Counted from the stretch's first letter, positions 499-60,586 are shown. The stretch is 64,000 nucleotides of DNA from Tubiluchus corallicola (GCA_030141605.1 JAQGDQ010000292.1:186001-250000); one strand, 5' to 3'. A program made the numbers and translations. Notes: generated from the sequence alone by a model not told the origin.

Positions 499-648
499 CT
501 AGCTTGTCCTGATTCAGTCTCTTTTTGGTTGACCCATTGCTTGTACACTTCTACTGGATTAGTGTTAATGTTGAGATTTTTGTCACCAATAATCTTTGTG
601 ACAAGAGGGTTAAGCAACTCTCTGAGCGAATTCAGGCCACGACCATTT
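499..648 (-). CDS. IQGAP1: IQGAP exon 26 (RasGAP-related domain)
   Basis: NGRGLNSLRELLNPLV...LNINTNPVEVYKQWVNQKETESGQAS. Confidence 0.95.
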
Positions 649-12600: not shown

Positions 12601-15600
12601 AATGTATGAAATACGTGCAAAACAATTTCTACAAATCAAATGAGCTGTAGGAGTAGGTAGAACAAAATCAAGTGCAAAATCACTTATAAATTATAATGCT
12701 ATTTTTGTAGTTGCACTTATAAATAGACAAATTATTATTCTTTCAGGACATAGTTAAAGTGTTTGCCCTTTTGAAGCAAAATTCAAAAAGCACAGAACTA
12801 TAAAATTCTTAACACAATAAAAAATCTTACTTCCCATTTTGGTTAAAAAAAAGTTGATTCTACAGACTGGTGTGACTGTCAACAATACTTACGAGCAGCT
12901 TCGTCTACTGACATCTCATTAGCAAGAATGCCTCCAATTTTGCTAAAAACAGGCATTTGAATTCCATACTTCTCCAGGGCTTTTCTCATGTTGTTTATTT
13001 CCTCTTCTGAAATACCAAGTAAAATTAAAAAAAATTGGCCCCTGAATATATGACATATTATTTGGTCATGTTCAAAAGTGCACATAAGATATTGAACATA
13101 ATTTATTGACAGAAAAAAATTAAAATATTTGCTGACTTGTTGAGTACGACACAAGCTCTGAGGGCTAATAAAATTTCGTAGCACACACACGACTACAATA
13201 TGAATGTTTTTATTACATGACTATTTTCTTGTATCTCATTTATTAATTGACACGGGTGAAAAAATTAATCTGTTGAGAGACACGATATAACAACTTTCAG
13301 TGCCAATAACGTGTGACTTGAATGTAAAGAAATGCACATTATGTAGGTAATAATTTAACAAGAGTTAAATTTGCTAAGCTGCATGAAATTTAAAAACATT
13401 GGCAATTCAGCACAAGGGGTTAGAAATGTGAAAAACTTCGACATGTGATAAACTCTAATACCACAACAAAATACGTTACGTTATTCTAGCAACAGCAAAC
13501 AACAATATGCTTGAATATCAACTTAACCAGCCTAATACGTTAAAGTTATGAAAAGCAAGATTTGTTAGTACAGCCCACACTTTTAGCAGCCACACTACCA
13601 TCCACTGAAGCCAGTATATACAGTTTTGTTAAAAATGCTGTAATAAGCAATATACTCCACTGCACTCCATAACATACTTCAATGTGTTAACTGAAGAACC
13701 ATTGTCGGTGTAGACTTCAAATGATATATTTTCTGCTCTCAAAAGTATAAACTTCATTGCAAGCACGGCAGAACAAGCCAGACTGATATGACAGTCAATA
13801 TGTCACAAATTCTCAAAAAGCACAGTACAACATCCAGTCGTTAACCCATTTACCAAGTCTTTGTGTTTTGCTTGATCAATAAGCACATCTCGTTCTTCAC
13901 TGCCACACAGTGTCAGAAAGGTTCTTCTCTGCTTCTATTAATTGTCTAACATTCAAGATCAGCACACAGAGAGCAAGGTGTATGTCACAAGGCTCACGAG
14001 TAAGTAATTTTTATTATTAAATGATTCACTTCCAGGCCGGGGGTGATTACACTTAGCAAGGTACTTCTAGACTCTGGTCACACTGATCACTGGGTAATGG
14101 GGAAATTGTTTCACCTTCGGGATCAGCACACAGGAAGTTCACATGATCGTTGCGGTCACTGCTCCAGTATCAAATACTTCATATTTAGATACTTCTCATG
14201 GTACATCTGGTGATTGTGGTCACTGACCATGCTGAGGGAGCTCTTCTACTTAATTGCTTCGATTTCACGAACAGCATATAGTGCAAATTCTTCTGGCCGC
14301 TGATCTAGGTATTTTTTCTTAACCAGTTCATCTCAAATTGGTCAATACTTGAAAACCAGGCATATATTCTCCTGGTGTAAAGGTACTAGCACTAAATCTG
14401 CTAGGCAATTCATTACAAGCCACGTGAAAATCTGTTGGTCAAAGAGCTGTCATGCTTATCGGCATTAAATTGTGGAGAAGCATAAGACAAGCCTTCATGG
14501 GGGATCTTTGATCTAAAAGGCAACACTAATACATTCAGAATAATTTGGACTAGGGCTCCTGTTAAAGTACGTAAGCCAATTAAATCTTAACTAAACTTAA
14601 AATAGAAAGTTATGCTGAAGTAGGAGTGTGTATACGTATGAAACATAAAGAAAATTCCCGAATGACAAAGCGAAAAAAGTAAACTACATGTAAGCTATAC
14701 AAGACACAAAGACTGCTTAAACCATGAAAAACATGAAACTAACCAAACTAAAACTTGTTAGAATTGGACACCAAAACAGTTGCAAGTGTGTGATGAATTT
14801 AATGTAAACCTTTGCAGAAATGCTGTAGAAACACCCGAATCTAACATCTATTTGAAAAGCAACTGAATATGTAACTTTCATATTTTACCAGACAAGCTGC
14901 AAAGAGATTGGCAGATGGCAGAACTCAAAACGACAGTGAATATCCGGGTATCACAGTTTACTTGAAAAGCATGACACCATGAATGAAAATGCCATAAAAT
15001 TTTAAGTGCAAACATTTTAAACATTTGCAGTTGTATTGCTACATAAAATAGATTCCACTTCTACTTGTAATGCAATAGAACATATTGAAAAAGCAGCAGC
15101 ACAGACACTGGCCACAACAATTTTTTTTTACATTCTAACAACTAACAATTATCCGAGAAATCTCCAAAGAGAGTAGAGCAGAAATAAAACAATATAGAAC
15201 AACGAAACTATCCGTTTACCATCTTGTAGACACTAGACAAACTTAAAACAAATAGAAAGAAACTTACGCAAAGTAAAAATGCGAAAAAAGAGCCAAGTAT
15301 TATGCAGATGCTGCAGTAACAAAACAAAATTTCCTTTTCGTACTTAGCAACTTCATCAGAAATACTGCCTCTATGCTCACTGTTAAATGTTGACTGGGCT
15401 TGATTATAACCATCTGAATGCAAATTTCTTAATGGTGTGCTTGTTAATATCTCTGAGGATTGAAACACCTCATTTGAAATACCGGACAAGGTATCATGTC
15501 TGGTTGTTTCATTAGAAATTCCCAAAGTGTGCACTTCTGCTGCGGCTTTGTTTGACTTGGGCTCTTGCAGTTCTTTATGAACTTCGCTTTTATAACGACC

Positions 15601-18600
15601 TGACTCAGTACCATCATTTTCAGCCTCATCAAAACAACGGGTTAGAGTTATCTCAGAATCTGGATGCAAACAATCACAATACTGGCATACAGCAGTAGAG
15701 TACTTATTATCTAAATGCTGACTGAAGCTTTGAGACTTAGCGGATTTAGACTTAGCAATTTGCAAAGACGTGACACAGCTACAATGTGGGCACAACAACG
15801 TAAGCACACGAGTTGCTGGAGGTAAACAAATGCGACTTCCGTCAATACATTCCCAACTGGAAATAGATGAAACACCAGCAACACCTTGAGAATCAACTAA
15901 ACTGAACTTCCGGGTCACATTATTACTTGAATCAGCAAAATGGACATAAACATCACTCACAGCTCTGTCTTCTGTAGCAGATTCTGCTTTTGTTGCAACA
16001 TTTGAAGCAACATTTGTGACTTGTGATGAGTATTTTGCAGTTATGGGCAAATCTGCAGATCTAAATGGTGAATCTCTTACATGTTGTATTTCTTGTTTAA
16101 GTTTTGCTCTTGTGTAGTTTAATTCATGTAAGAGCATTTCCCTTGTGTGAGTTACTTCGTCACGTAAAGATGAAGTCATATGATTCACTTCCTCAAGTAG
16201 TTCATTATTACGGTAATTAAGTTCAGTGAGCATAACATTTTTTGTGCAGTTAATTTCTTCAAAAATTTTGGATAAATATTTCTCATGAGACCTCAAGTCA
16301 GAAGCTGCACTTGTAAAAGTTCCATGATGGGTAGCTTTGACTTCTTTTAGATTACTTAGCTTAGGCAAACAAATGTCTCTGCATGAGGGGCTTCTTTGTT
16401 TTGCAATACTAGTGCTTGGGAAAGAAAATGAATGTTTACATGTGGAAGAAAAAATTGGTTGCACATGCCCTGCTTCTGCCCAGCTTAGAAGCCTGTGTTT
16501 TACACCAAGTTTATCATACAGATGATAAGTCTGCTCAATGTTTTGATTGAGAGATACATTTAACTCGCTGCGATATAAGTGTCTGTCTGAAATAATATTG
16601 GTGTGTTCCAGAAATTTATTCTCTTTAATTGGTATATCAGTATCATTAAACTCCATAGCAGGCAAAGCAACGAAAAAACATTTTGCAATAAAGAGCTCAG
16701 ACTTATGTAACAGATACTTTGACTCCAGCTGTTTTCTCAAAGATAAACACTGCCTCGCTTCAGAATCAAGAAGTTCAAAACAGGAAGAATTTAGCAAAAC
16801 AAAGTGACAAGACAAATACAGATCAGATTCACTCTTGTCATCATCAAAATCTTCAGCTAAAGTGCAACTGAAAAGATCCGTATCTTCAGGAATATGTTTT
16901 ATCACCCACTCCATTGTTGCAAGAAAGGTGTCAGTGAGAGAGATGCTCTTGCTGAGATTTACAAACAAAGTGGAATCTGTACTAGAAGAATATACAGAAT
17001 CAGAACCCAGAAATGAGTTTGTCTCATCCAAATTAAGTTGCATCGGAAACTCATTTTCACTCTCTTCCACATCATATTTATTTACATGACTTACAACTTG
17101 GGAGGACAGATAATCCACATTTACCTTAGAGGGTATTTCAGGAGGATTGAAAAAAGATATCACTGGCTTAAGCTGAATGATGCTAGGAAAGAACTGAAGA
17201 GACACTTTGTCATCTAGTTCTGAAATTTCAATAGCCAAAGTATGCAGGAGCACTTCACTGGGTAATTTGGGAAAGTCACTATCATCAAAAACTAATTTAG
17301 GTTTGCAAGCTATTATTAAAGGTTCCCAAGTAAGTTCTTTAACGTGCTCCAAATCTACAATACCGGGTAATTGAACAACACTGACTGTCTGCAACTTGGG
17401 TTCTGTTTTACTAAGTAATACAGTTTCAAATAATTCTTGGGCCAAAACAATGTCTATAGGAGCTTGACTCGTTGGTTCAAGTAACTGTGATAAGTAATTA
17501 AATTTACTCATAAGCACATATTCGTCAACTGGAAATTGCGACGTAGATGTACAAGTCCAATTTACACTCAAAGGTAATTTACTACTTAATTCAATCTCAT
17601 ATGTGGACTTCACATGTCCATAAGCAGTTTTTTCTGCAGCAGCAGGTGCAAATAAAAGTAAGTTCTCAGTTTTTGTTTTGTCAAATAATATTTCAGCAAT
17701 ACTCTCACCCTTTCTTTCCACAATTAAATCAGACCCTTTCAAACTCACTTCTTCTAAAGGCTTAACAGCAGAGTCATGGGTATAATGTGCATGAAAGTAT
17801 GTGTCAGAATCATAATCAGATTCTTCCGATAACTCCAAGGCTGGTAGGCACTCCAATACCTCAACCTCAATAGGGATGCTTGCAGAAGAGCTAAGTGATT
17901 CTGCACTGGCATACAGAGAATCTTTGTCATCGAGAAATATTTGAAATGGCATTGATAATATGGCACTGCTCAGGAGTTCATTCTGTTCTGTTACTTGAAT
18001 AGCCAAAGTATGCAGGAGTACTCCATTGGGTAATTTGGGAAAGTCACTATCATCAAAAACTAATTTAGGTTTGCATGCTATTATTAGAGGTTCCCAAGCA
18101 AGTTCTTTAACGTGCTCCAAATCTACAATATCGGGTAATTGAACAACACTGACTGTCTGCAACTTGGGTTCTGTTTTACTAAGTAATACAGTTTCAAATA
18201 ATTCTTGAGCCAAAACAATGTCCTTAGGAGCTTGACTCGTTTGTTCAAATAACTGTGATAAGTAATTAGATTTACTCATAAGCACATATTCGTCAACTGG
18301 AAATTGCGACGTAGATGTACAAGTCCAATTTACACTCAAAGGTAATTTACTACTTAATTCAATCTCATATGTGGACTTCACATGTCCATAAGCAGTTTTT
18401 TCTGCAGCAGCAGGTGCAAATACAAGTAAATTCTCAGCTTTTGTTTTGTCAAATAATATTTCAGAAAAACTCTCACCCTTTCTTTCCACAATTAAATCAG
18501 ACCCTTTCAAACTCACTTCTTCTAAAGGCTTAACAGCAGAGTCATGGGTATAATGTGCATGAAAGTATGTGTCAGAATCATAATCAGATTCTTCCGATAA

Positions 18601-21600
18601 CTCCAAGGCTGGTTGGCACTCCAATACCTCAACCTCAATAGGGATGCTTGCAGAAGAGCTATGTGATTCTGCACTGGCATACAGAGAATCTTTGTCATCG
18701 AGAAATATTTGAAATGGCATTGATAATATGGCACTGCTCAGGAGTTCATTCTGTTCTGTTACTTGAATAGCCAAAGTATGCAGGAGTACTTCATTGGGTA
18801 ATTTGGGAAAGTCACTATCATCAAAAACTAATTTAGGTTTGCAAGCTATTATTAGAGGTTCCCAAGCAAGTTCTTTAACATGCTCCAAATCTACAATATC
18901 GGGTAATTGAACAACACTGACTGTCTGCAACTTGGGTTCTGTTTTACTAAGTAATACAGTTTCAAATAATTCTTGGGCCAAAACAATGTCCTTAGGAGCT
19001 TGACTCGTTGGTTCAAGTAACTGTGATAAGTAATTAAATTTACTCATAAGCACATATTCGTCAACTGGAAATTCTGACGTAGATATACAAGTCCAATTTA
19101 CACTCAAAGGTAATTTACTACTTAATTCAATCTCATATGTGGACTTCACATGTCCATAAGCAGTTTTTTCTGCAGTAGTAGGTGCAAATAAAAGTAAGTT
19201 CTCAGCTTTTGTTTTGTCAAATAATATTTCAGAAAAACTCTCACCCTTTTTTTCCATAATTAAATCAGACCCTTTCAAACTCACTTCTTCTAAAGGCTTA
19301 ACAGCAGAGTCATGGGTATAATGTGCATTAAAGTACGTGTCAGAATCATAATCAGATTCTTCCGATAACTCCAAGGCTGGTTGGCACTCCAATACCTCAA
19401 CCTCAATAGGGATGCTTGCAGAAGAGCTAAGTGATTCTGCACTGGCATACAGAGAATCTTTGTCATCGAGAAATATTTGAAATGGCATTGATAATATGGC
19501 ACTGCTCAGGAGTTCATTCTGTTCTGTTACTTGAATAGCCAAAGTATGCAGGAGTACTTCATTGGGTAATTTGGGAAAGTCACTATCATCAAAAACTAAT
19601 TTAGGTTTGCAAGCTATTATTAGAGGTTCCCAAGCAAGTTCTTTAATGTGCTCCAAATCTACAATATCGGGTAATTGAACAACACTGACTGTCTGCAACT
19701 TGGGTTCTGTTTTACTAAGTAATACAGTTTCAAATAATTCTTGGGCCAAAACAATGTCCTTAGGAGCTTGACTCGTTGGTTCAAGTAACTGTGATAAGTA
19801 ATTAAATTTACTCATAAGCACATATTCGTCAACTGGAAATTGCAACGTAGATGTACAAGTCCAATTTACACTCAAAGGTAATTTACTACTTAATTCAATC
19901 TCATATGTGGACTTCACATGTCCATAACCAGTTTTTTCTGCAGCAGTAGGTGCAAATAAAAGTAAGTTCTCAGCTTTTGTTTTGTCAAATAATATTTCAG
20001 AAATACTCTCACCCTTTCTTTCCACAATTAAATCAGACCCTTTCAAACTCACTTCTTCTAAAGGCTTAACAGCAGAGTCATGGGTATAATGTGCATGAAA
20101 GTACGTGTCAGAATCATAATCAGATTCTTCCGATAACTCCAAGGCTGGTTGGCACTCCAATACCTCAACCTCAATAGAGATGCTTGCAGAAGAGCTAAGT
20201 GATTCTGCACTGGCATACAGAGAATCTTTGTCATCGAGAAATATTTGAAATGGCATTGATAATATGGCACTGCTCAGGAGTTCATTCTGTTCTGTTACTT
20301 GAATAGCCAAAGTATGCAGGAGTACTTCATTGGGTAATTTGGGAAAGTCACTATCATCAAAAACTAATTTAGGTTTGCAAGCTATTATTAGAGGTTCCCA
20401 AGCAAGTTCTTTAACGTGCTCCAAATCTACAATATCGGGTAATTGAACAACACTGACTGTCTGTAACTTGGATTCTGTTTTACTAAGTAATACAGTTTCA
20501 AATAATTCTTGAGCCAAAACAATGTCCTTAGGAGCTTGACTCGTTGGTTCAAATAACTGTGATAAGTAATGAGATTTACTCATAAGCACATATTCGTCAA
20601 CTGGAAATTCTGACGTAGATGTACAAGTCCAATTTACACTCAAAGGTAATTTACTACTTAATTCAATCTCATATGTGGACTTCACATGTCCATAAGCAGT
20701 TTTTTCTGCAGTAGTAGGTGCAAATAAAAGTAAGTTCTCAGCTTTTGTTTTGTCAAATAATATTTCAGAAAAACTCTCACCCTTTTTTTCCATAATTAAA
20801 TCAGACCCTTTCAAACTCACTTCTTCTAAAGGCTTAACAGCAGAGTCATGGGTATAATGTGCATTAAAGTACGTGTCAGAATCATAATCAGATTCTTCCG
20901 ATAACTCCAAGGCTGGTTGGCACTCCAATACCTCAACCTCAATAGGGATGCTTGCAGAAGAGCTAAGTGATTCTGCACTGGCATACAGAGAATCTTTGTC
21001 ATCGAGAAATATTTGAAATGGCATTGATAATATGGCACTGCTCAGGAGTTCATTCTGTTCTGTTACTTGAATAGCCAAAGTATGCAGGAGTACTTCATTG
21101 GGTAATTTGGGAAAGTCACTATCATCAAAAACTAATTTAGGTTTGCAAGCTATTATTAGAGGTTCCCAAGCAAGTTCTTTAACATGCTCCAAATCTACAA
21201 TATCGGGTAATTGAACAACACTGACTGTCTGCAACTTGGGTTCTGTTTTACTAAGTAATACAGTTTCAAATAATTCTTGGGCCAAAACAATGTCCTTAGG
21301 AGCTTGACTCGTTGGTTCAAGTAACTGTGATAAGTAATTAAATTTACTCATAAGCACATATTCGTCAACTGGAAATTGCAACGTAGATGTACAAGTCCAA
21401 TTTACACTCAAAGGTAATTTACTACTTAATTCAATCTCATATGTGGACTTCACATGTCCATAAGTAGTTTTTTCTGCAGCAGCAGGTGCAAATACAAGTA
21501 AATTCTCAGCTTTTGTTTTGTCAAATAATATTTCAGAAATACTCTCACCCTTTCTTTCCACAATTAAATCAGACCCTTTCAAACTCACTTCTTCTAAAGG

Positions 21601-24600
21601 CTTAACAGCAGAGTCATGGGTATAATGTGCATGAAAGTACGTGTCAGAATCATAATCAGATTCTTCCGATAACTCCAAGGCTGGTTGGCACTCCAATACC
21701 TCAACCTCAATAGAGATGCTTGCAGAAGAGCTAAGTGATTCTGCACTGGCATACAGAGAATCTTTGTCATCGAGAAATATTTGAAATGGCATTGATAATA
21801 TGGCACTGCTCAGGAGTTCATTCTGTTCTGTTACTTGAATAGCCAAAGTATGCAGGAGTACTTCATTGGGTAATTTGGGAAAGTCACTATCATCAAAAAC
21901 TAATTTAGGTTTGCAAGCTATTATTAGAGGTTCCCAAGCAAGTTCTTTAACATGCTCCAAATCTACAATATCGGGTAATTGAACAACACTGACTGTCTGC
22001 AACTTGGGTTCTGTTTTACTAAGTAATACAGTTTCAAATAATTCTTGGGCCAAAAGAATGTCCTTAGGAGCTTGACTCGTTGGTTCAAGTAACTGTGATA
22101 AGTAATTAAATTTACTCATAAGCACATATTCGTCAACTGGAAATTCTGACGTAGATGTACAAGTCCAATTTACACTCAAAGGTAATTTACTACTTAATTC
22201 AATCTCATATGTGGACTTCACATGTCCATAAGCAGTTTTTTCTGCAGCAGTAGGTGCAAATAAAAGTAAGTTCTCAGCTTTTGTTTTGTCAAATAATATT
22301 TCAGAAATACTCTCACCCTTTCTTTCCACAATTAAATCAGACCCTTTCAAACTCACTTCTTCTAAAGGCTTAACAGCAGAGTCATGGGTATAATGTGCAT
22401 GAAAGTACGTGTCAGAATCATAATCAGATTCTTCCGATAACTCCAAGGCTGGTTGGCACTCCAATACCTCAACCTCAATAGAGATGCTTGCAGAAGAGCA
22501 AAGTGATTCTGCACTGGCATACAGAGAATCTTTGTTATCGAGAAATATTTGAAATGGCATTGATAATATGGCACTGCTCAGGAGTTCATTCTGTTCTGTT
22601 ACTTGAATAGCCAAAGTATGCAGGAGTACTTCATTGGGTAATTTGGGAAAGTCACTATCATCAAAAACTAATTTAGGTTTGCAAGCTATTATTAGAGGTT
22701 CCCAAGCAAGTTCTTTAACGTGCTCCAAATCTACAATATCGGGTAATTGAACGACACTGACTGTCTGCAACTTGGATTCTGTTTTACTAAGTAATACAGT
22801 TTCAAATAATTCTTCAGCCAAAACAATGTCCTTAGGAGCTTGACTCATTGGTTCAAGTAACTGTGATAAGTAATTAAATTTACTCATAAGCACATATTCG
22901 TCAACTGGAAATTCTGACGTAGATGTACAAGTCCAATTTACACTCAAAGGTAATTTACTACTTAATTCAATCTCATATGTGGACTTCACATGTCCATAAG
23001 CAGTTTTTTCTGCAGCAGTAGGTGCAAATAAAAGTAAGTTCTCAGCTTTTGTTTTGTCAAATAATATTTCAGAAATACTCTCACCCTTTCTTTCCACAAT
23101 TAAATCAGACCCTTTCAAACTCACTTCTTCTAAAGGCTTAACAGCAGAGTCATGAGTATAATGTGCATGAAAGTACGTGTCAGAATCATAATCAGATTCA
23201 TCCGATAACTCCAAGGCTGGTTGGCACTCCAATACCTCAACCTCAATAGAGATGCTTGCAGAAGAGCTAAGTGATTCTGCACTGGCATGCAGAGAATCTT
23301 TGTCATCGAGAAATATTTGAAATGGCATTGATAATATGGCACTGCTCAGGAGTTCATTCTGTTCTGTTACTTGAATAGCCAAAGTATGCAGGGGTACTTC
23401 ATTGGGTAATTTGGGAAAGTCACTATCACCAAAAACTAATTTAGGTTTGCAAGCTATTATTAGAGGTTCCCAAGCAAGTTCTTTAACGTGCTCCAAATCT
23501 ACAATATCGGGTAATTGAACGACACTGACTGTCTGTAACTTGGATTCTGTTTTACTAAGTAATACAGTTTCAAATAATTCTTGAGCCAAAACAATGTCCT
23601 TAGGAGCTTGACTCGTTGGTTCAAATAACTGTGATAAGTAATTAGATTTACTCATAAGCACATATTCGTCAACTGGAAATTCTGACGTAGATGTACAAGT
23701 CCAATTTACACTCAAAGGTAATTTACTACTTAATTCAATCTCATATGTGGACTTCACATGTCCATAAGCAGTTTTTTCTGCAGTAGTAGGTGCAAATAAA
23801 AGTAAGTTCTCAGCTTTTGTTTTGTCAAATAATATTTCAGAAAAACTCTCACCCTTTTTTTCCATAATTAAATCAGACCCTTTCAAACTCACTTCTTCTA
23901 AAGGCTTAACAGCAGAGTCATGGGTATAATGTGCATGAAAGTACGTGTCAGAATCATAATCAGATTCTTCCGATAACTCCAAGGCTGGTTGGCACTCCAA
24001 TACCTCAACCTCAATAGGGATGCTTGCAGAAGAGCTAAGTGATTCTGCACTGGCATACAGAGAATCTTTGTCATCGAGAAATATTTCAAACGGCATTGAT
24101 AATATCGGCACTGCTCAGGAGTTCATTCTGTTCTGATGTTTCAATAGCCAAAGTATGCAGAAGTACTTCATTGGCTAACTTGTCATGAAATAATAATTCA
24201 GGTTTGCAAGTTATTATTATTGGTTTCCAAGCAGGTTTCTCAATAACGGGTTCTAAAACTAAAGTATCAGGTAATTCACCAATATTAAGCACCTGTAATC
24301 TGCTTTCAGTTGCTGTGATTGATACTGTCTCAAAAGCTTCAGAAACTAAAGCAATTTCGTTTGGCTGTTCACATACATGCAAACTCAGTTGTAATAGTAA
24401 CCTTGATTTGTTAAAAATAATCTGTTCATTAATAGGAAATTGTGGATAAGCTTGAGTCAATATGTCAATTTCGTTTTCAATTGAATTATCACCAAAAAAC
24501 AATTTGAAAATATCATTATCATCTTTGCTCATATAAAATTCCTTTATGCTACCGCTTGCAACACCCAAGTTCATTTTAAAGAAGCCAGCCTTTATTCGAT

Positions 24601-27600
24601 ACAAGTAAAGTAATTTTCTTATAATATCTATCGAGGTCTCATCAGTTTTTGAATCAAAGTATATTTTTAGTAAGTAGTGCAGTTCTTCATCCTCAAAGGT
24701 CAAAGGAATTTCTTTAGGAAACACAGCATTTTCAATTAGTATATCTGGCAAGCTTTGGGATGTCAGTCTTGTAATCTCATAGTCCTGCCATGACAAATGA
24801 ACCTCCACTGGAAATGTTATGCACTGCACATTTTCTCCATAGGCTAATACTTTAACAAAAGATGCAAGCTTAACTATTTCAGCTTCTGTCCAACCAAAAA
24901 CCACTTCTAGAGGCAAAAAACTGGTATCTTCGATAGTATACCCCTCAAAAATTTCAACATTCAACCTTTTGATTTCTGAATCTGACCATGGTAACACTAC
25001 ATTGCACGGTAATAATACAAATGCATTAAAAATGGGCTTTAAAATCTCAAACATGCTCAGTTGTGTAATTTCAGTATCTTTCCACAGCAACGTCACAGTT
25101 TCTTGAAAATGACCGTCATTACTTACTAAACATTTTGATGCAGAATTAATAACTAATTTGCTTAACTCTGGTTCCGTCCATGAAATAAATACATCTTTTG
25201 GTACTGATTGCATAGTTGCTGTTTCAAATGTCCACATACTCTTGACAAACAACAATACTAATTCATAGTCTACCCACGAAATGTCGACGGTTTTAGGAAA
25301 TGAATCAACAGCATGAAATTCAAATTCTAAATAACACTTTAGAGTTAACTCTATTATCTCGCTATCCAGCCAATGGAAATATACATTATTAGGAAGCATA
25401 ACAGCATCCACATCAACATACTTTAAGGTTGCTTTAATATTAAGTTCAATCATGTCTGCTTCGGACCAGTGCAATATCACATCATCTGTTAATGATATAA
25501 AGTTATATTTCACAAATTCATAATGTGCTTTGGAGTAAAGCTCTGCCAACTCACTTAATGACCAACTACAGTCTATAACAGTGGGTAATTGTACATCACC
25601 TATTAGAGAGCATATGGGCTGTTCATTTAAGAAAGATATCATGGCTTCAGATTCTATAATCAATTCAACAGTATTGTTTACATTTTTCATTAACAAATTC
25701 ATTTCAGGTTTAGTCCAGAATAAGCAAACGTAATTTGGAAATCTACTTACTGCATGATTCAGCTGAACACAATCTAATTTACTTTGAAATGTAAGTGTGT
25801 CTGATAGAGACCAATATAAGTCGATTTTTGTATAGGCTACATCTGCTTGCATAAATAGTGAGCCAACTGTCACCTTGCTCTTCAGTTCAGTAATATCGCT
25901 TTCTGTCCAATTCAAGATCACAAGTTCTGGCATTCCAAAAACTATCGAGTTTAAGTGTAATAGTTTCTCAGAAATACAACAAAGGAATTGAGTGATTTCA
26001 ACTTCAGTATAATTAAAAAGTACCTCACAAGGAAAGGTTAAGGATCTATAAAAAATAAACCTGAAAACATCATTAGTTTGCAAATGAGTTAACTCATGTT
26101 CGTCCCAAAATAGCACCACATCTTTCAAATGTTTATCTGAATCGACTAGTGTTATGTTACTCAAATTACAAAGTAATTTGATTACTTCCATGTAATCCCA
26201 ATTCAGCTCAACTTCCACAGGTTTAGGAAAATCGTAAACCTCTTCCCATGTTCCTTCAAGTACAAACGACCTAGACAATTCACAAAGAAACTGCACTATT
26301 TCCATCTCTGACCAGTCTATAAGAACATCACTGGAAAACATTTTAATGACAGATTTGTCAAAACTGAAATCTGGAATAACTTTAGTCCACCATTCAGCTA
26401 TTTCAGGTTCACTCCACAGTAATAGTACTTCATTTCGATCCACGGCCAACATTTCAGCTAGCTTAACATCTTTTTTCCTTGTTGCACAGTACAGAAAACT
26501 AAGCTCTGCTACTGACCAATACATATCCACTTCTTCAGGTTGATCGTAAAAGTCTTCATATTGTTCGATGACTAGTTTGGATAAAAACAACGTACTCTGT
26601 AAGGCAATTACTTCTGGTTCAGTCCATTCCAAACTAACTTGCACTGGGAATTTGTCAGTTTCAAGTTTAATCCACTGCCGTAACACACTTGACTGAAGTT
26701 CAGTTATTACTGAGTCTAAACCTGCTTGGGTCCATTGTAAACAAATTGCTGCAAGAAACTCTGAAGCCATCGCTACTTCCCATTTTAAAATTACAAAATG
26801 TGGAGCATAAATAATGTTGGCATTTTGCAAATTTATCACGAGCTCATGTGGACTGAGACCAAAATGTGTTTCTTTAATGCCAAATTTAGTTGTTTCACAC
26901 TCATCCATTTCTAAATATATTTCACTGGTTGAACTGACATTTGCATTTAAATTCCAGTGCGAATAATTATCTGATTCTAACTCATGCAAATGAGCAAGCG
27001 GTAATTCAAGATAAATTTTACAGAAACGTAATGGATCACTTAATGACTGATAGAAAAGCTTATCTTTGAAAAGAGTAACCTCATTTTCAGTCCAGTTGAA
27101 ATTCACGGTATCGGGCATTAAATTATCACTGGGAACAACATCAATCAAGGGACATAGATCACAATGGAGCTTAACTAGTTCTTTGTCTGCCCATTTCAAA
27201 GAAGCATGTAAAGGAAAATCTCTGCACTCCCATGTAGTAAAGTGAGGAACAGCATTCACTGAAAGATAAGCCAATTCAAAATCATTCCATTCCATTTCCA
27301 CTTCAACAGGAAAATCAACAGTCTTAGGTTCAATGTGAAAAACATCTGAAGTGTCAACCATTTTGCAAATTAAGTGTGACAGTTCTTCTTCTGACCATGC
27401 TAAAACCACCTCACACTGCAAGAAATGAGTACTGCTTTGCTCTGCACATAGCAAATCATTCACCAACTTACTCTGCAGGATAACTATTTCAGCAGTTAAC
27501 CACTCTAACCCAATTTCATTTGGGAGACTTGAACATTCATACATGCAAAATTCTGGTAAACTAACGATGGAAAGACACACTTCGTCAGATAGTTCCCAAA

Positions 27601-30600
27601 ATAATTCCATTTCAAAGTAATTGCCACCAACTTCGATTGCTTCCAATTCTATACATGTTTTTGCAGAACACAGCAGTTGTGTCGTTTCTGATTCTGTCCA
27701 AGTAATATTCAACTGATTTGGTAAAATGTCAAGGCTTGCAGGAACAACAACTGTGTGCATCATGCACATCAAATGTATCACTTCTACTTCAGTCCACGCC
27801 AAATTGACATCAATTGGCAAAAGATCAACAGACTTATATTGTGCTACATTTAATTCAGATAAAATAAGCGACACAATCCACAGAGTGCTCATCTCAGAAT
27901 CTGGCCACCTTAATGTTACTGCATTTGGCATTTCTTCTGCTTTACTTACAACAAACTCATGGTCCAGCTTGCTCCATAGTTCTGTTATTTCACACTCATC
28001 CCAAGCTAATGTTACAGTGGGCAAATATTCAGTCCCTTGTCCCAAAGCTATTTCAAGTAAGCATGAGCAATAAAATTCAATTAAATTGGCAGATGTTAGC
28101 ACTGTTGACACTGTTGATGTCGTCTCTGCACAAATGGCATTCCATTTTAATACAGTTCTGTCAGACAACTGCCTAACAATAGCATCTTCAAAGTTCAATG
28201 AAATCTCCATCTCAGTGTTAGATATTTTACCTTCGTGAGGGCATGATTTTGTTCCGTCTTTCCACAACAAGTGAACTTCCGTAAGTTCCTCCGAATTTTC
28301 AATGCACAGTGGTAATGGCCATTTGACATATTCATTGTCTGCTAAGCTGTACATGTCAGGGTCTGACATTTCTAAAACAATACAAATAGGAAAACTAGTG
28401 ATTTGTTGAACAGAAGCAGTGTCTCTTGCACAAGCTGCTCTCAACCACGATAATAGATTTGTTATCAAGGTATTTGTCAAATGCAAAGCCATTCTTTCAG
28501 ATGCTAGTGTTATTTCAACGAAAAACCACGTTAAAACTACACTGCTTTCCGTTAAGTGGAAACTGGCTTCATGGCATTCTAAATTTACAATATTTTTAAA
28601 TGGTGCATTGAATCTTTCTTTATTGCTGTTAGCTTCATCATCTGACTGAACACTCTCACTTTTTATGCCAGCGGTATGGGCATCTGACCAATGCAAATGC
28701 AGCTTTCCTATTAGTGTTCTCGTATCAGGTAGCAACCACATATAAACAGCATTATCAACTATTTCTTGTAAGTTGGACTGTGGCAGGTCTATGACAACCT
28801 GGATAGGCCATTTAATGCTACTTTGAACTTTAATGATGCTATATTCAGTCCAAGGGATGATCAAATTAAAAGACAATTCGGATACGATTGGTACAGTCCA
28901 TTTTAAGATCAACTTACGTTCCTGTTCTACTGTAAGCACTTCTGCTTCTGTTACTTCCAAAATAACCTTATTTGGCCATATGTTTATTTGCTCTAATGCT
29001 TTAGATTGTTCCTCTAATGTATCAACTACACGAGCATCAGCTAACTTTAAATTACTCTCAATGGGCACATATTCAAATGACCACTGAGTTAGAGTATTAC
29101 ATCTCAAATGGCTCACTTCAACGTCAGACATCTCGAATGCGAAGCGAACAGATTGGAGAAAAACTTTTTGAAGTAGCTGATTTGTCTGCAAGCTGATGCA
29201 AGCAGGTAGTTGAGTGTACTCCAACTCTGTCCACTTTAACGTAATATCACTAGCAGTTTGAGTTACATGTGCTTTTGTGGCATTTAAAGGTACCACTGAC
29301 TGTGATTTGGTGTGTTCTGACCAGTTATTACTTGTCAAAGCATCACGAAATTTCAAGGCAACATTTCTCGGTAACTTGTTCAATTTTGGAAAAAGCCAAT
29401 ACAAATGAGCATTGGGCTTGAGTTGAATTAAGTCATTGGTAGTTAATTGTACAGTAACATGCTCAAAACTTAACATCAACTTACTTAAAAGTTCACTGAC
29501 ATCAACTACTGTGAAACAGAAACTAGTTTTGCAAGCTAAATCTGGAAAAGCAACAGCATCCCACTTTAATTCAGCATTCGACAGATACTTAACTACATCA
29601 GCTGTTGCAAAGTCTAAATATATCACAGCTCGTGGAATGCAAGACTGAACAGTAGTATTCAAAACAACAGAATCACAAACAACAGGTATTTCTGGTTGAA
29701 GGTTAAACTGCACAGCTTCAGAACTTTTCAAAAGAACATGACTAGTTACATCACTTACATTTTGACATTTCCACACCAATGCTGTGTTACTTTTTAACTC
29801 AAACAAATCAGTGTAAAGTAGTTCAAAAGTAACCAGCTTATCTCTTAACCATGTAGTACTCTCGCATAGGGATACAAATGGTTTTCCCCACTGAAGTACT
29901 ATCTTCGTGGGAAGGCAATAACAATTCACGTAGTCCCACATAAAGGTCATTCCAGTTTCTTTTTGATTCACTTCAGCTTGTGCACCATCTAGAGAAATCA
30001 CATCTGACATTAACTCATCACTTACATCTTTAAGCTCACTACTGTCACACTCAGAATACTTCAAGAAAACTTCATCAGCACTCAACTGCAACAGAGACCA
30101 TTGCAGAATAGAACCAGGCCGAAGGTGCACAAAATCAGACCACGACAAATGCAAGGTAAGAGAAAAAGATCCCAAAGAAAGTAGTTGCACAAGCTCATAT
30201 GCTTTAACTGCTGAAAGCATCATGGCTACATGACTGGAAAACTGACGAGATTTTGCACCAAGCCAGTTTAAGTGGATTTTCTGTTCTTTTACAATTACCT
30301 GGGCTTCTGAGCAGTGTAAGAGAAAATCACTACAATCTGAAATTTCTACCACTGAATCATTGTCATAACTACTTATCTCTGCATCTGAAGCTTTTAAGAA
30401 AAGAGATAAACTCTCAATTCCAACAAACCTCCACTGGAACAATGTATTACAGCAAAAAGACAATAGCTGGCTGACAGACAGTTCAACAGTAACATTTACG
30501 AACCAAGTATTAATTTTATTCAGAATGTGAGCCTTTCCCATTTCAGACCACTTCATTACAACATTTGTTGGTACATCATAATAGCTTATATCAAACCATC

Positions 30601-33600
30601 TCAATAAAATGAACTCTCCATTTTCAGTAAATTCAGCATCCGTTACATCTAACATAATTATATCTGCAGCTGCAGGAGTCTTGCTTTCACTAAATGGCAT
30701 ATTTTGTGCTTCGGTTATTTCTGAATCGCATAGCTTCAATGTCACATTACCTGGACCAAATAAGTTTAGCATTAAATCTGTCCACTGAAAAGAAGAGTTA
30801 TGCTGAATGTGCATTAACTCAGTTTGAGATAATTCTAAAGTAAAATTTGAGGTGCCTAAAGAACAAAATCTTAGCAATTTGTTATATACATTTTCTATCC
30901 AGTGGATCACAATATGACATGGCAAACTAGCGGTTTGTAAGCCTGTCCATTTTAATAAGATGGTATCTTGCTCGTTAATCATATCTGCTTTGAACACATC
31001 CAAATAGACAGAAGTTGCAACCTCCAAATTCTTACTTGTGTCACAAACCGTGTCAGTATCCTGAATTTTTGTTTGTTTTGAATCCAACAAGCGAAGGTGT
31101 ATATCTTCCAAATCAGTAACATAAGATACTTTCCAAGAAAGAATGGTGTCATGGAGATATGACCATAGGTCAACATGCTTTATGTTTAGAGTAATATTCA
31201 ATAACCAAGATGTGATCTTATTCCTAATTTCCACAATTTTAGATTCTTTCCAGTGTAATATTATAGATCTGGGCAGTTCATAACAATAAACAGAAGGCCA
31301 TTTTAAAATCAATTTAGAATGTATTTGGTCTACCTGTGCTACTGTACAATCTAAAACTATGATTTCTGAAACAGAGGCAGAGGCAGCCAAATTGCGCAAA
31401 TCTTCAGCTAATCCTTCTTGCATCAAGATCGTTTCTGCTTCAGATAGTTTTAGATGGAAAGTGTTCGGCAGTTCTGCAAAGACGGACAAGGTCCAGAATG
31501 AAGCAGAGTCATAACAAACATTTAACAACTCCGACTGTGACAATTCCACAGAAACATCAACAGACCCCAACAAAAGCCTCTTTAAGAGTTCACTGCGCTT
31601 AGCGTCAGTCAATTCAAGAACAATATTGCAGGGAAAACGGTTACAAAACTTGTCAAAACATCTCAAAGTCAAAGTCGGATGACTTTCAGATATTTCTATA
31701 TTCAACCAATCCAGAAAAACTACAGAATCAAATATACCCATCTCTGCACATTCGTCTTCAGATTCAGTCACACGAGCATCTTTTCCAGCTAAAAGCACAC
31801 AATCTGCTTTATATTCAGGTAGCTTCCACTGCAACAAGGAAGTGCAAGACAATAACAGCAACTGCTTGCAATCAAGTTCAACTGTAATGTCTAACAACCA
31901 AGATAACGTATTGCAAATTTCTGGCAAATTATTCCAATGTAACAAAACCTCAGATGAAACCATGAAACAATTCAATGCAGACCACTTCAAGAAAACCTTC
32001 CTCTGGTGTTGTTCGACTAGAGCTTCTGTACTGGATAAGCTAACGTTAGGCAATGCTGCAAACGTACTTAGCTTTGATAAATCAAGCCATTTGCTATATG
32101 TGTCAAATGTTCTCGCCTCTAACCACTTAAAATTTACTTGACTTGGCAACTCTGCATGAGGTGGCAACAGCCATTGAGACACCCAGTTGTCTTGAATTTT
32201 TACTAAATCAGAAAGAGACAATTCAAGAACAAAATCTGTAGAACCTAAAACAAACTTTTTCAAAAGATCAACTTGTACTGTCAATGTTATCGGAAAAATG
32301 ACCTTGCAGGGCAATCCTTTCAAAGAAATACCAAACCAACTCAGGCAAATCTTGTGTCTATGTAGTTTCAAAACTGTTTCAGCTTCAGTCAAGTCTAAAA
32401 CAATGACATTTGAAAAAAATTCTGAGCTATCAGTTGTTAAATGGTCTCCTGAAAAAATAGTTAGCTCAGCACTGACAATGTCAAGTTTGACATCGTCTGT
32501 TGCTTTGGCCATCGCTGGAATTATCCACTGCAAAGCAGTCTTAGGTGACTCACACTGTTGATGTAAAACATAGCTGTAAGTCATTTCTAAATGAAAGTTT
32601 ACCAAATGAGAAAAAACTTTCTCTTTGAGATGAAGCAATGCAGATTCTGACCAATATACACAAACTTGTATTGGTAATTCATAACAATAAACATTCGACC
32701 AGCTACACATGACAAGGTGATCAGCATGGCTGATCTCAGCTTGTTCACAGTCCAAAAGCACAACAGCATTAGTTTCACTGTCAGTAAGTTGACCACTATT
32801 TTCAGCCTCACTCCATTTGAGCTCCACCTCATCTGATAACTCATCTTTGTTAGACAATGTCCAAAGTGATGCACAATTGACCGGCAGATTGAACCACTCA
32901 CTCTCAGTTAAGGGAACAACAAAGGTTACATTACCCACAGGCATCTTCTTCAGCAGGCAAGTCAAGTCATTTGCTGTCAAGAACAGGGCTACTTTACATG
33001 GCACCCTGGGAATATTTACTTTAGAAAAGCTTAAAAGAACTTTTCTTGGCAATGTTTTTGTAACAGAATGTTCCCATTTTAAGAATACATATGTTGAGAT
33101 TATACTAGATTCAAAAGAACCGATAACATCTGAATGGTTGCAGTCTTGTGTATAACTTGTAATACTAGCTTGTGAACTGACAAAATTCAATTCACCTGAC
33201 AGTTGGGTACTTTTAGGAATAAGCCATTCTAACAACAGATCATTATTGAAAAACACCAGATCCATGTAAAACAGCTCTAAAGAAATGTCAACTGACGGCA
33301 AAGTGATCTTAATCTTCATATCCTCTAGATTACTTTTCGTGAGCTTTAATACTGCAGTAGATGGCAACTCATAGCAGTAAACATCTGCCCATTTCAATAT
33401 AACCTCATAAGTTTGTTCAACTAACTCAGCATTGGAAATATTCAAAGAAATCTCCGATGACTTTGTTTCACTTACGGCTACTTTGTGCAATGAAACTGTA
33501 CTAACTTCCCGTTTTACTGCTTCTGACCATTCCAACTCAACTGGAGAAAACAAGTCTGTAGAGTCAGACAGTACCCATTCTGCGATAATATCGTTGCAGC

Positions 33601-36600
33601 ATTGCAGCAGCATCACTTTGGTAATAATAACACTAATGGCTATTGGAAAAGCTTCGGTAACTGCCAATACCAATAAGTGTTCCATTAGATCACAAATTTC
33701 ATTATTACTCCACTTCAATGGGATCACAGATGGCAATGACAATGTTTCGAAAATTTTCAAGGGCTCAAAAAATTTACATTGAATTTCTACAATTTTTTCT
33801 CCTGTGCATTGCAGAGCAACTTTGTGAGGTAACCTAGAAAATGAAATTGTTGTCCACTGTAGTACTGCAGTTTTTTGACATCCCGTTAATCTTGCATTTG
33901 CTGGATCTAGAATTATTAGTGATTCTGGACTTTCCAACATGTTTTTTCTAAATAGTTTTGCCTGTACATCAACTAGCTCATTATCACACAAGAAAGCATC
34001 TGCAGTTTTTAGAATGACTTCAGACCGCCATTTGTAAATTCTGCTTACTGTCCAAATAAAGAAATGACTGACCTGAAGTTTCAAAATATCATTCTGCTCC
34101 AGTTTAACAAGTATTTTAACAGTATATTTAGACTGAGACACAATGGGCAAGTGAGCTATTTGTTCCTCAGCTGTAGCTTTACTAGGATGCTTATCAATCA
34201 CTCGCCGATCTGATTTCAGTTTGTTCTGTAATTCAGCCATCACATCAGCAGGAAAATTCATACTCTTTTCGCCCATATCAATTCCAGCATCATCTCTGTG
34301 TGCACTTTTATTTGTTTCATTAAAATCTGCTATCCGATGTGCTGATCTTCCACTCGAATACAGAACAGGCCTAGATTTAAGGTCACCTATCACCGCATCC
34401 ATAGCTGACTTATAGGATTTCTTGTCTGTGCTGTCTCTAGCTGACGTAGGTACAAGTGATGACACGATTTTAGGAAGTGCAATAGGTCCAGAAGTCCTAT
34501 GGCGCTTTGCTGTGTATCTTTTATCAAAGGTTTTGGTTTTGACAAAAGACAGTCTAAAAAGAGTTCTATCATATTTATATTGTTTTGATGAGGTTACTGT
34601 GCTTGCGCCAAAAGAAGCGGACCTGATTCTTGGCTTTGCTTGTTCTGGAAATGAGTCAGCCCTTGGTCTTTTCAGAGGTGTAATGCCTGTGCTTCTATCT
34701 GGACTGCATCCCAGAAATCGCTTACGCAGGTTGCCAAACAATGATCCGAAACTTTTCCTGAATGCATGTCCAGACATTTTCAGGGAAACAACTGCATATT
34801 GAAACTGTTCATCTGAAAGTAAGCATTTAAGGTTCTACTTATCAATTTAGGCTGAACACTCAAAGTCATTAGTGGAAAGAGTGCATTTTCCTGTCTAGTC
34901 GAAAAACTAAAACAACTTATAAAGTAATGATTCAATCTCTTTTAGTGAGACAGGCACTTGTTACAATAAAGGGTAATCAAATAGCTAACAGCTATCTGTG
35001 AACTGTGCGTTGCAAACAATGCCGTGCAACTGAACAGTTCGTTTGATAACAACAACAAATTCATCGCCAAACGTTGTGACCTCTTATTATCAGCTTAATT
35101 AACCTCAACAAGTTAATAAAGATAATTTCTTTACTTTTTTCATAGAATTCCACACATTAAAAGAACCGTCACTCAAGTACACAAATGTTATCCTTAAGCA
35201 AGATCCGTAAGGGACGTTATCTACTTGGAATTCATTTATGTCATCGGTTACTCCCAGCTTCACCGTTCTTTTGGAGGTCAAATATACTAAGATTGCCCCA
35301 ACAGTACTGATCCTGTGCCCTAATACTTTTAAAGCAAAACAAAAACAATAGTCTTACCGGTAAATTCAACTTTTCCCAGGAGGTTTTGGATTTGTGGCGC
35401 AAGGCCAAGTTTGAACAGGTAGAGGCTGAAACATATTAATATGTTAGTAATTGATGAAATGAATATTAATTGCATAAAATCAGCAAAGTGCAATACTTTC
35501 AAAGTAAGATTGGCTATGTAATCTATTTAAAGGAAAACTGGACGATTGTTTTTACTCAACCTCATTTTAATTTACTGTCCAAAATATACATTTTCTTGCC
35601 TATAAAGTTAGCAACTGTTTCTTATACTTGAATAATTAGCTTAGAAAGTTAATTAATGGCAACAGAACACAGCTATTGCTTATGTCAGAAACTAACCACA
35701 GTTTGTGCAATAGCAGGCATCTTCCCGTCAAGCATGTTTGTATAAGTGTTACTGCTTAAACCGGGGATGAGAATGACAAACTGCGAAAAACTCTGAAACA
35801 GGCCGGGGGTTTGGGGGCCGAGGGGCAAAGCACTATGGGGGTTGAAGGGGGCAAAGCCCCCTTGGAGCTAGCAACAAATTGCACTTTTGTGACCATAGAG
35901 GGCCTCTAAGTGGACTTAAAATATCAATTACTTTGTTTCATGCATAATTAAAAATACCCAACTATCAAGGATACATGATACATATGATCATAAAGCTTCA
36001 AAAAATTAACAAATTTTATTCTGTATATATTTTGTTGCCTATATCTCATAAATTATAAAATTAAACTTGGTTCTATTCAAATTACGCTTTGGTTTGTGTC
36101 TGGAGGCCTCAAAGCTTCACACTTGTCAGCAATGAAGATATGCCACATTGCCGTAAAAGGCATGTTACAAATCGTACAGATTATCAAATAAACGATATTT
36201 ATGCTTTATTTGAACTATTTTAGCCAAAATTTTTCAGCAATTTTTAACATCTAGGAGATAAAAAGGAAAGCTGGATAGATACCTTGAAAAAATGCTACTG
36301 AAAGTTTCGGTTACGATTTCGACGAAAACAAGGTTCAACCGCGAAAAATTTTCTCAACAAATTTACGCGATTTACAAAAATGGCACTACTGGTCTTCCAA
36401 AAACTCGGAATTCCGCATATCCGCGGAAAATTCTCATCCCTGTTAAACGTGTGCTGTCACGAAAATGAGCTCTACATCATATGACGTCAGAAACTAACAC
36501 TGCAGTTCATGATCATGGTTATCATGGTACCACCTTCCATTTGTCGGCCACGCAAATGTGACAAAAAAGCGCCACTGCCAATCTTAGTATAGATTCACTG

Positions 36601-46469: not shown

Positions 46470-47600
46470 GCTAGGACATTCGGCAGGGAGTCCATGAACA
46501 GATTTTCATTTTTTCCACACATTTTTGCTTTGTCACCAATCCCTTGGCATGTGTGGCAATTAATGGATGTGCTATGGTAGTATAAAAATGGACACAAACT
46601 ACTTTGATATGACCAGGTTTGGGAGTACTCCAATTCCATAGCAGCTTACTCGTTTCCCTTATGATCTGTTGCTACCAAAGGCGGTTATGCCAGAGTGTTG
46701 GTTTCTGTTCTCATGTTCATACCTTGCTGGTTTTGATTATTGCATCACTAAAATCATGTTGCGCTGAGTGCTCCTCATTCCGGTAGTATCGTAATCTGTT
46801 TACCGTTAGTTCTGAATGTGCGGCTGCAATATTATTGATGAGCTTATCGGTCCCTTTTTTCAATGAGTGCATAATATCATACAACAAGGATGATGAAAAC
46901 TTTTGGCAAAATTTTTTATGCTTTTATAACTTCAAATACAAGTGTTCCAATATCAGCCATTTCCACTGTGTTTGAGTCCTTCAGCATTTCTTAAAGTGCA
47001 ACCATTTATTGATCAGATTGTTGAATCACCTAGAATCAGATGTTTCAGCTTATCAATCACTTGTTCTCCGCCTGAAGTGCCAGAACTGCATAGCATCTCG
47101 ATTTCACTTTTTATTGTGTCGTTTTCTCTCTCTTTCACTACAGCTGATTAAGGTATTTGTTACGTCATCTTTTAGGGCTGGTACCTGTTTCGAATTTATT
47201 TCCAGAGTAGTACCTTGGAAATTAAAACCTCTTTTAATAGCTGCAGCACTTGACAGAGGTAATTTAATTTCTCCAATATCGTTTGGCATCTGACGGCATG
47301 CTGCCAGGGCATACCCAGCAACTTCTTGTAGCAATGTTACCAGTAATGTCAACACACAAGCAATGGCACCATCGCCCACATTTACAGCACTCAATCATCT
47401 TAACTCTCTCTCCATTTCTACCTGATGAACAGGTTTCTAAACAACAATTTTCCCATGAACGAACTTGGCCTGGAAACGGCCTCTCGGGGTTGCAGTCTGT
47501 GTGAGACATACCGAGGGTTTTATAGCAAATGTTCAGGGCACAGTAGATTCTCTGTTTGAGCAATACTTTGATGCAATAAATAGTTCTGTTCTTAGTATTA
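46470..47600 (-). pseudogene. Decayed ORF containing a PHD-finger-like segment (probable transposon remnant)
   Basis: NCCLETC...MIECCKCGRWCHCLCV...CWVCPG fits the PHD pattern but lacks the last Cys; downstream frames are broken by stops and frameshifts. Confidence 0.5.
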
Positions 47601-48499
47601 CGCATTTGTCCATACCCCCCCCCCCGGAACCAAACCACAATATACACTATAATACAATATACCATTACCCAGAATGGTAGATCTGACTGATTAAGTAACT
47701 TAGCTACAAGTACGAGTAACGTGGTCGTCAACTCAAGTTCTTTTACTTAGACTTTGCAGTTAAGGGCGCAAGTTCTTAAAAACCGGGTGCTCATAGTTAT
47801 ACACAAAAAAGTTAAACAAATATAAAAAATAATTTTATCACACAAAGACTGATACCTTCTTGGAACAACCTTAAGAAAGCTTTATTCGCACATTTAAAAA
47901 AACGTTTGAAGCTGAGATATCAACGATGACGAGCAACACCATCAATAATTAGTGATATTTAAATGATACAGTGAATTTATAACCTACTCACGTAACAAGA
48001 TATGCCAACTGCCAGTTACCTGCACTTAAAAGATATGACTCCCACATTACACTTTCAACAAAAGATTAAAATAAAGCAATAAAATAACTTCAAAGACGAG
48101 CAACTTTACTAAATCTACCAAAAACTGTCAAACCGAAAACAGCGGTAAAATAGCATGGTATTGTGGGATATACGTTACAAAGGAGCAAAAGGACTATCAA
48201 CAATTATGTACAATGTCTACAATTCACTACCAGTTTATTTTCCGCATCCAATCTGGTTATAAACCATAGATTTAAATGCCACACACGCAATTTTCAGCTA
48301 ACGCCACCCAGGCACCTACACTAGCTACTGTCAGCTGAATTGAAAATAACTGATTAAATTGTGCTTCTCTATTTTGAAATGACAGCAGTGCTATAATTGT
48401 AGATTTATTTTTTCAAATTAGTGCCAATAGGCAATAAGCACGGCGGCATTAATTTCTCCTAAAATGTTAACATACAGCATTAATCGTAAACTATATCAA

Positions 48500-60546: not shown

Positions 60547-60586
<40 letters not shown>

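Follow-up and report, generated by a model that had tools for sequence, protein, structure and literature searches.

A 19.6-kb frame in IQGAP intron 6 of Tubiluchus corallicola as a probable alternative last exon, likely derived from exon 7

Described giant-exon and actin-linker systems, and the IQGAP host gene

Giant exons are known from the ankyrins, namely vertebrate AnkG and AnkB, Drosophila Ank2 L/XL and C. elegans UNC-44 AO13; in the passages drawn on here, the long exons have a mean of 8,103 +/- 4,850 bp, and the Ciona case is an unbroken 13.4 kb intronic open reading frame (ORF) (PMC5135030). Nesprin-1/2 giant, MSP-300 and ANC-1 are KASH proteins that, as the passages used describe them, combine an N-terminal calponin-homology (CH) actin module, a very long repeat rod and one C-terminal transmembrane segment (PMC4019843). 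Here we analyse the gene for IQGAP, whose CH domain binds F-actin (PMC3296274, in part), within a 64,000-nucleotide stretch of Tubiluchus corallicola DNA (GCA_030141605.1 JAQGDQ010000292.1:186001-250000; hereafter the window). Intron 6 of this gene holds a 19.6-kb frame on the same, minus, strand. Sequence comparison and structure prediction suggest, with a probability of about 0.72, that the frame is an alternative last exon, likely arising from a duplicate of exon 7, and that its ~6,700-residue product would link actin to a membrane through a tail anchor.

The IQGAP frame is similar to the giant-exon ankyrins in being a very long single-ORF exon (19.6 kb, 6,534 codons) within an intron of a gene for a cytoskeletal scaffold, and its orphan repeat arrays recall those of the ankyrin giant exons, which, in the passages cited, are recognisable only in close relatives (PMC5135030). 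Only the gene layout is alike, however: the host is IQGAP, and the combination of ankyrin repeats, ZU5-ZU5-UPA and death domain is absent. The proposed exon also follows the first domain directly, and its use would leave out most of canonical IQGAP; an exon-7-like segment forms its start, and its size lies more than two standard deviations above the ankyrin mean (PMC5135030, same passages).

The first-pass annotation of this locus had drawn a parallel with nesprins. The overall layout of the proposed isoform does correspond, whereas the components do not: one IQGAP-type CH domain is encoded in exons 1-6 instead of two N-terminal CH domains; the Pfam scans found no spectrin repeat family, and the ~113-residue repeat unit is modelled as mostly beta with two helices; and the hydrophobic segment is followed by a 6-residue tail without proline, compared with tails of 9-35 residues ending in PPPX in the passages cited (PMC4019843). 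By analogy, giant-exon ankyrins are a closer precedent than nesprins for the gene structure, and the putative IQGAP form is a member of neither group. Compared with canonical IQGAP1 or the IQGAP of Priapulus caudatus, the proposed isoform keeps exons 1-6 only. A review of IQGAP proteins mentions a testis splice variant of IQGAP2, and the word 'transmembrane' is absent from the passages drawn on (PMC3296274). A giant IQGAP isoform was not found in the titles and abstract starts of the open literature, a scope outside which most subscription papers fall.

The host gene was identified as IQGAP on the minus strand. Exon 3 matched the solved CH domain of IQGAP1 (E 2e-23), and exons 2-26, aligned to the relatives P0023 and P0008 by tblastn and alignment, splice into a single stop-free frame. 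This one frame encodes an N-terminal CH domain, internal repeats, a WW-like segment, IQ motifs and a GAP-related region, within which the gene leaves the window. Among the matches listed, the closest IQGAP is that of Priapulus caudatus (P0023; 63.5% identity over 1,097 residues), with the next rows at or below 52%. A search with the CH domain gave proteins of at most 2,000 residues, nearly all vertebrate, among the best 120 of 440 matches, and is thus uninformative on giant isoforms elsewhere. The exons are as follows.

44470-44587, minus strand: IQGAP exon 1, coding part, with a putative start; located by tblastn with the Priapulus IQGAP N-terminus and an in-frame join to exon 2
43336-43441, minus strand: IQGAP exon 2 (CH core)
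39489-39645, minus strand: IQGAP exon 3 (CH core), with a GC donor
38482-38559, minus strand: IQGAP exon 4 (CH core)
37290-37366, minus strand: IQGAP exon 5 (CH core)
35358-35425, minus strand: IQGAP exon 6, ending in phase 1; its donor is common to both proposed isoforms
12893-13006, minus strand: IQGAP exon 7, phase 1; joined to exon 6 in the canonical form
499-12312, minus strand: IQGAP exons 8-26 (internal repeats, WW-like, IQ and the start of the GAP-related region), outside the proposed giant isoform

Intron 6 spans 22,351 nt, compared with 108-3,690 nt for the remaining 23 mapped introns. Its earlier placement at 13007-35357, with the phase-1 exon 6 donor at 35358, was confirmed, and exon 7 starts at 13006, also in phase 1. 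Exons 2-6 had been taken to encode the complete CH domain; the CH core is indeed present, but the solved IQGAP1 CH construct 2RR8 continues through 31 exon-7-encoded residues. Because 2RR8 includes these residues, an isoform that leaves the gene at exon 6 needs a substitute for them. Two observations concern other introns. Intron 3 (39489/39488, minus strand) has a GC donor in place of GT, and only this donor gives the correct frame join. Intron 5 (~35520-36900) contains very high-copy interspersed repeats, with depth above 100,000 and summed up to 820,000 in the read contigs X1, against 189 for unique DNA.

Continuity of the giant frame and its junction with exon 6

Four features define the frame and its proposed start.

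15208-34812, minus strand: coding part of the giant exon, 19,605 nt long as printed in the window and 6,534 codons without base 24104
24104, strand not assigned: extra frame-shifting base in the window, missing from the unique-copy contigs of X1 and X2
34813-35357, minus strand: intron of the proposed giant isoform, 545 nt
34703-34812, minus strand: exon-7-like start, by anchored similarity and predicted packing on the CH core; missed by unanchored searches

As assembled, the giant ORF consists of two frames, 34834-24086 (3,582 codons) and 24114-15208 (2,968 codons), offset by one base, which the first-pass annotation did not report. The change of frame falls at the edge of an array of 768-nt repeats, where the first, diverged motif copy is one base longer than the eight later copies. 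Base 24104 was absent from both unique-copy read contigs that cross the site at a setting of 1% share, one from X1 (11.5 kb long, depth 189.3) and one from X2 (5.1 kb, depth 14.9), and the one-base shift in the window is probably an assembly error. Removing this base leaves the exon with 6,534 uninterrupted codons; together with exons 1-6 it encodes 6,735 residues (~763 kDa, isoelectric point 4.7). With the base kept, the spliced product ends at 3,776 residues and has no anchor. The lengths reported by the first-pass annotation, ~6,530 codons and a product of ~6,700 residues, are therefore true of the read contigs, which lack the base, and not of the window as printed, with its two offset frames. 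The comparison with read contigs covered the part of the frame above base 23700.

A chance ORF is excluded: given an off-frame stop rate of 0.099 per codon, the ~4,250 non-repeated open codons correspond to log10 P near -190. Codon usage does not separate the frames (correlation 0.79 in frame, 0.71-0.76 off frame, 0.75 in introns). The giant frame itself is real.

A large intronless orphan frame within an intron could also have been brought in, as a long ORF, by a mobile element or a virus, and a multicopy element with terminal inverted repeats or a target-site duplication had been considered from the outset. Such an origin is extremely improbable. The frame is single-copy, with an X1 depth of 189 compared with 166-188 in the flanking introns, and has no terminal repeats. 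Its flanks share no direct repeat of at least 11 nt and only one 12-nt A-rich inverted match; of 196 inverted pairs, the 25 longest are all short and imperfect, and none is terminal. The GC content matches that of the host, and the start of the frame resembles host exon 7. Pfam scans of the giant frame listed no CH family and no transposase, reverse transcriptase or viral protein likeness, a negative limited to Pfam and to a viral fold search with one repeat unit.

Inspection of the junction agreed with the earlier placement of a phase-1 acceptor at 34812, of the first in-frame ATG 35 nt inside it at 34777, and of the stop that closes the frame 8 codons upstream of the acceptor. This acceptor is the first intron AG that opens the long frame from exon 6, and it alone of the 36 AGs between the exon 6 donor and 34812 carries exon 6 into that frame. 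Its score of 4.9 lies within the range of the gene's own 25 acceptors (1.5-13.6) and is the second of the 60 AGs above 34500. A splice of exon 6 to 34812 is considered likely.

The first 32 residues of the giant exon weakly resemble exon 7: in an anchored comparison, 12 of 4,219 other windows and 11 of 2,000 shuffles scored at least as high. When the first 36 residues were modelled with the Priapulus CH core, the predicted complex scored 0.61, compared with 0.14 for the best of three controls; the runs agreed in at least 95% of contacts, and the pLDDT (predicted local distance difference test) of the partner was at least 76. As a benchmark, among microbial pairs 51 of 78 solved and 2 of 108 mismatched ones reached the docking mark; among eukaryotic pairs, 71 of 105 solved and 2 of 126 unrelated ones did. 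Since a like structure has already been solved (2RR8), the docking shows likeness to exon 7 and not binding. The models are consistent with the new exon supplying a replacement for the exon-7 part of the CH domain, as it appears to do.

The position of these residues also bears on whether the frame is instead a separate same-strand nested gene, with its own promoter in intron 6, starting at ATG 34777 and lacking the CH domain. Of the 25 best predicted CH contacts, 15 involve residues 2-10, which precede the first Met (residue 12) and hence would not be translated from a nested gene; likewise, the exon-7 likeness starts at acceptor 34812, and the phase of this acceptor fits exon 6. Moreover, five out-of-frame ATGs lie within the 110 nt upstream of the first in-frame ATG. 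For a nested gene speak the A at -3 of ATG 34777, the lack of any IQGAP likeness in the start by unanchored searches, and a strong out-of-frame acceptor at 34906, which could close an intron after a non-coding first exon; in addition, 19 open codons ahead of a true start would be no rarity (P ~0.24). Weighing both sides, we consider a nested gene unlikely and prefer the alternative last exon, the reading of the first-pass annotation, which has gained three supports: the first in-frame AG, the exon-7-like start and the predicted docking of the pre-Met residues. Separately, acceptor 34906 (minus strand), if used after exon 6, would lead to a stop after 12 codons, and the transcript would yield a protein with the CH domain only or be subject to decay.

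Several observations nevertheless weigh against an alternative last exon derived from exon 7. Acceptor 34812 ranks 51st of 1,502 among the AGs of the intron, and the AG at 34906 scores higher (9.0) but is out of frame with exon 6. The anchored exon-7 test was made after the likeness had been seen by eye; unanchored searches gave no PDB match for it, and hhalign gave a probability of 0.14%, at another site. The docking used the CH domain of another species as a stand-in and a peptide as the partner, a class outside the tool's benchmark, with no control taken from the same frame. X1 and X2 represent one sample, possibly the source of the assembly; they therefore correct base 24104 without being independent evidence. 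Single contigs add possible breaks of the frame. X2 has a +1 at 31790 in a single contig, absent from X1 and X3 (depth 3.1). X5, another sample with the same species label that is ~10-13% diverged, has an unpaired -1 at 33272 and a +5 near 25674-25677 among the rows listed (two more rows exist). Pending raw reads, these single-contig breaks weigh against an intact frame. Finally, silent changes were not in excess (14 of the 38 differences listed, compared with ~28% expected neutrally; P 0.15), and pN/pS, the ratio of replacement to silent differences, was ~1.1 among the 256-residue repeat copies. Short-range amino-acid constraint on the giant frame thus looks weak.

These data also bear on whether the exon was once functional and is now decaying or weakly constrained, with the giant product absent or restricted to some alleles. 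Decay would agree with the one-base shift in the window, the single-contig indels of X2 and X5 and the lack of a significant excess of silent changes. Against it, there is no stop in 6,534 codons, and the window's shift is missing from the read contigs. X5 covers 17 of 30 bins of the frame (the 13 uncovered bins include the exon start and exon 6), and seven of its eight listed pieces over the frame are gap-free. Its 377 listed differences include only four indel clusters, two of them frame-keeping: besides the two possible breaks above, a +3 near 32441 and a compensated +1/-1 near 32910. The single-base indels of X2 and X5 adjoin A-runs. Decay has, in our judgement, a small probability.

Over 23990-35500, X5 and X6 differ from the window by ~6-13% despite carrying the species label of X1, which suggests a cryptic species or a loose label. 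Two short X6 contigs, with depths of 34-38 and collinear loose ends, match the frame (25692-25857 and 30790-30928); none lies on exon 6 and there is no joint. X6 comprises 70,053 contigs (13 Mb), and two such deep islands could come from reduced-representation DNA as well as from RNA, so that no inference was drawn from X6.

The encoded protein and its C-terminal end

The proposed exon encodes, from start to end, the following segments beyond the exon-7-like start.

34121-34702, minus strand: basic, Ser-rich head with two RxRxxS motifs
27878-33931, minus strand: ~17 tandem, highly diverged ~113-residue repeats, found by profile; an 18th lies at ~26594-26863
24731-28039, minus strand: 28 Trp-anchored repeats of ~32-35 residues
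17227-24090, minus strand: nine tandem 768-nt (256-residue) repeats without a stop
16069-16302, minus strand: coiled-coil-like amphipathic stretch, weakly supported (Pfam CCDC90-like, E 0.045, below the cut-off)
15676-15792, minus strand: CxxC motif pair in the translation, a possible zinc site
15229-15330, minus strand: one hydrophobic segment at the C-terminus, with a tail of six residues after it that lacks PPPX
13107-15207, minus strand: candidate 3' untranslated region, with poly(A) hexamers at 14803, 14015, 13244, 13214 and 13107

The basic head of ~230 residues precedes the repeat units, and its RxRxxS motifs are candidate kinase sites. The ~113-residue repeats were missed by self-BLAST and detected by a profile. 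In leave-one-out scoring, 18 of 18 units gave 25-86 bits, compared with at most 12 for shuffles, although the units are only 13-27% identical to the first row. AlphaFold2, run on one unit with the 18 rows as its only alignment, returned a mostly beta model with two helices (pLDDT 76.3; predicted template-modelling score 0.62), and the unit is predicted to be a folded alpha/beta domain. That such old repeats have kept their pattern would suggest long selection as protein. The 32-residue repeat model was unusable (pLDDT 35.7). Copies of the 768-nt repeat differ at 6-39 positions per 741 nt, and a degenerate half copy lies upstream of the array. The depth of the array (17227-24090) is 9-14 times that of unique DNA in X1, X2 and X4, compared with 8-9 copies assembled, indicating possible collapse or length polymorphism. 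These rough depth ratios (~9-14 vs 8-9 copies) hint that the repeat rod is longer than assembled, or variable in length.

Relatives of the giant frame were not found by the protein, profile, Pfam and fold searches made. At E <= 0.001, the first frame had none among 7,486 candidates of 1,965-6,255 residues, and the last 678 residues had none among 7,328 candidates of 1,188-3,390 residues. The repeat profile matched seven of 1.84 billion proteins, all of them short-period or bacterial repeat proteins, which were judged unrelated. For the ~113-residue unit, Foldseek returned nothing at E <= 0.001 in the PDB or viral sets (viral: 0 of at least 500 rows), and the best of 48,161 chains had a Z of 3.1, with a root-mean-square deviation of 3.3 over 65 aligned residues, which does not show the fold to be new. 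Ten of 13 weak PDB rows were leucine-rich repeat proteins (E 0.0096-0.76), a class that the fold searches did not list. An atlas search gave one match, at 0.79, and none that was usable. Pfam rows in the second frame (DUF3234, CUB, BTB and Fel d I) contained no passing stretch; they arise from summing repeats and were rejected. An Rfam search gave no matches.

A tail-anchored membrane protein has one hydrophobic helix at its extreme C-terminus. The giant frame has this arrangement, its hydrophobic segment ending six residues from the end. The best 21-residue hydropathy in the second frame, 2.8, falls at residues 2936-2956 of 2,968, and the next best in that frame is 1.17; a weaker internal stretch (2.06) lies within a repeat unit. 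The AATAAA sites that the first-pass annotation had located near 14015 and 13214 are present, with further ones at 13244 and 13107 and an ATTAAA at 14803.

Could the frame instead be a giant internal cassette exon, spliced to exon 7 or later and giving a giant full-length IQGAP without an anchor, comparable to chordate giant ankyrin exons in their internal position within the gene? Two fair donors do lie near its end, 15483 (score 5.6, phase 1, fitting exon 7) and 15268 (5.9, phase 0, fitting exon 9), and the tail DNA is T-rich (58 of 123 nt) and can mimic a hydrophobic segment. However, the frame remains open for 92 codons beyond 15483, the last fair phase-1 donor, and into the hydrophobic segment, which has P ~0.001 if this DNA were intronic. 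With a splice at 15268, most of the hydrophobic segment would remain in the product and the rest of IQGAP would lie across a membrane, and a join to exon 7 would duplicate the exon-7-like segment. A cassette therefore seems quite improbable; from the sequence, a last exon fits best.

Neighbouring frames and the proposed role of the giant isoform

Other frames in the window lie upstream of IQGAP. At 51957-52775 (minus strand), an intronless frame of 272 codons encodes a whole COP9 signalosome subunit 7 (CSN7 helical bundle, PCI and helix I; Pfam) and, in this intron-rich genome, is possibly a retrocopy. Three large frames at 59177-62254 (minus strand; 367, 136 and 118 codons) are polar, proline- or acid-rich and without a Pfam match, and are likely exons of one upstream gene. 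A 160-codon frame at 47264-47746 (minus strand), also without a Pfam match, is perhaps a transposon remnant; it ends in a cysteine pattern that we take to be PHD-finger-like.

For IQGAP, we propose a model in which the choice is made at the exon 6 donor, where splicing to 34812 would compete with the 22-kb splice to exon 7, and in which the giant transcript would end before exon 7. The first ~35 new residues are predicted to replace the exon-7 segment packed on the CH core; with this segment replaced, the head would stay folded and could bind F-actin. The folded ~113-residue domains, together with the further acidic repeats, would form a long cytoplasmic spacer whose length is set by repeat number, and the single C-terminal helix would insert into a membrane. 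Without the IQ, WW and GAP-related parts, the giant isoform would lose calmodulin and Rac/Cdc42 control and act structurally. In its fullest form, which we regard as moderately likely, the model holds that exon 7 was duplicated and the copy grew to a 19.6-kb last exon, so that one gene would provide both a signalling scaffold and a ~760-kDa actin-membrane tether, with an independently acquired nesprin-like layout and a ~113-residue rod domain that is maybe an undescribed fold.

If true, a giant linker between actin and a membrane would here have arisen independently, through exon duplication, and would carry a visible trace of that origin, in that the new exon still rebuilds the end of the CH domain. 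The orphan repeat domain, folded in prediction, can be expressed singly. An exon of this kind would escape annotation, and IQGAP intron 6 is worth checking in further invertebrate genomes. Giant-exon isoforms are known for ankyrins; for IQGAP, within the open literature, such an isoform would be new.

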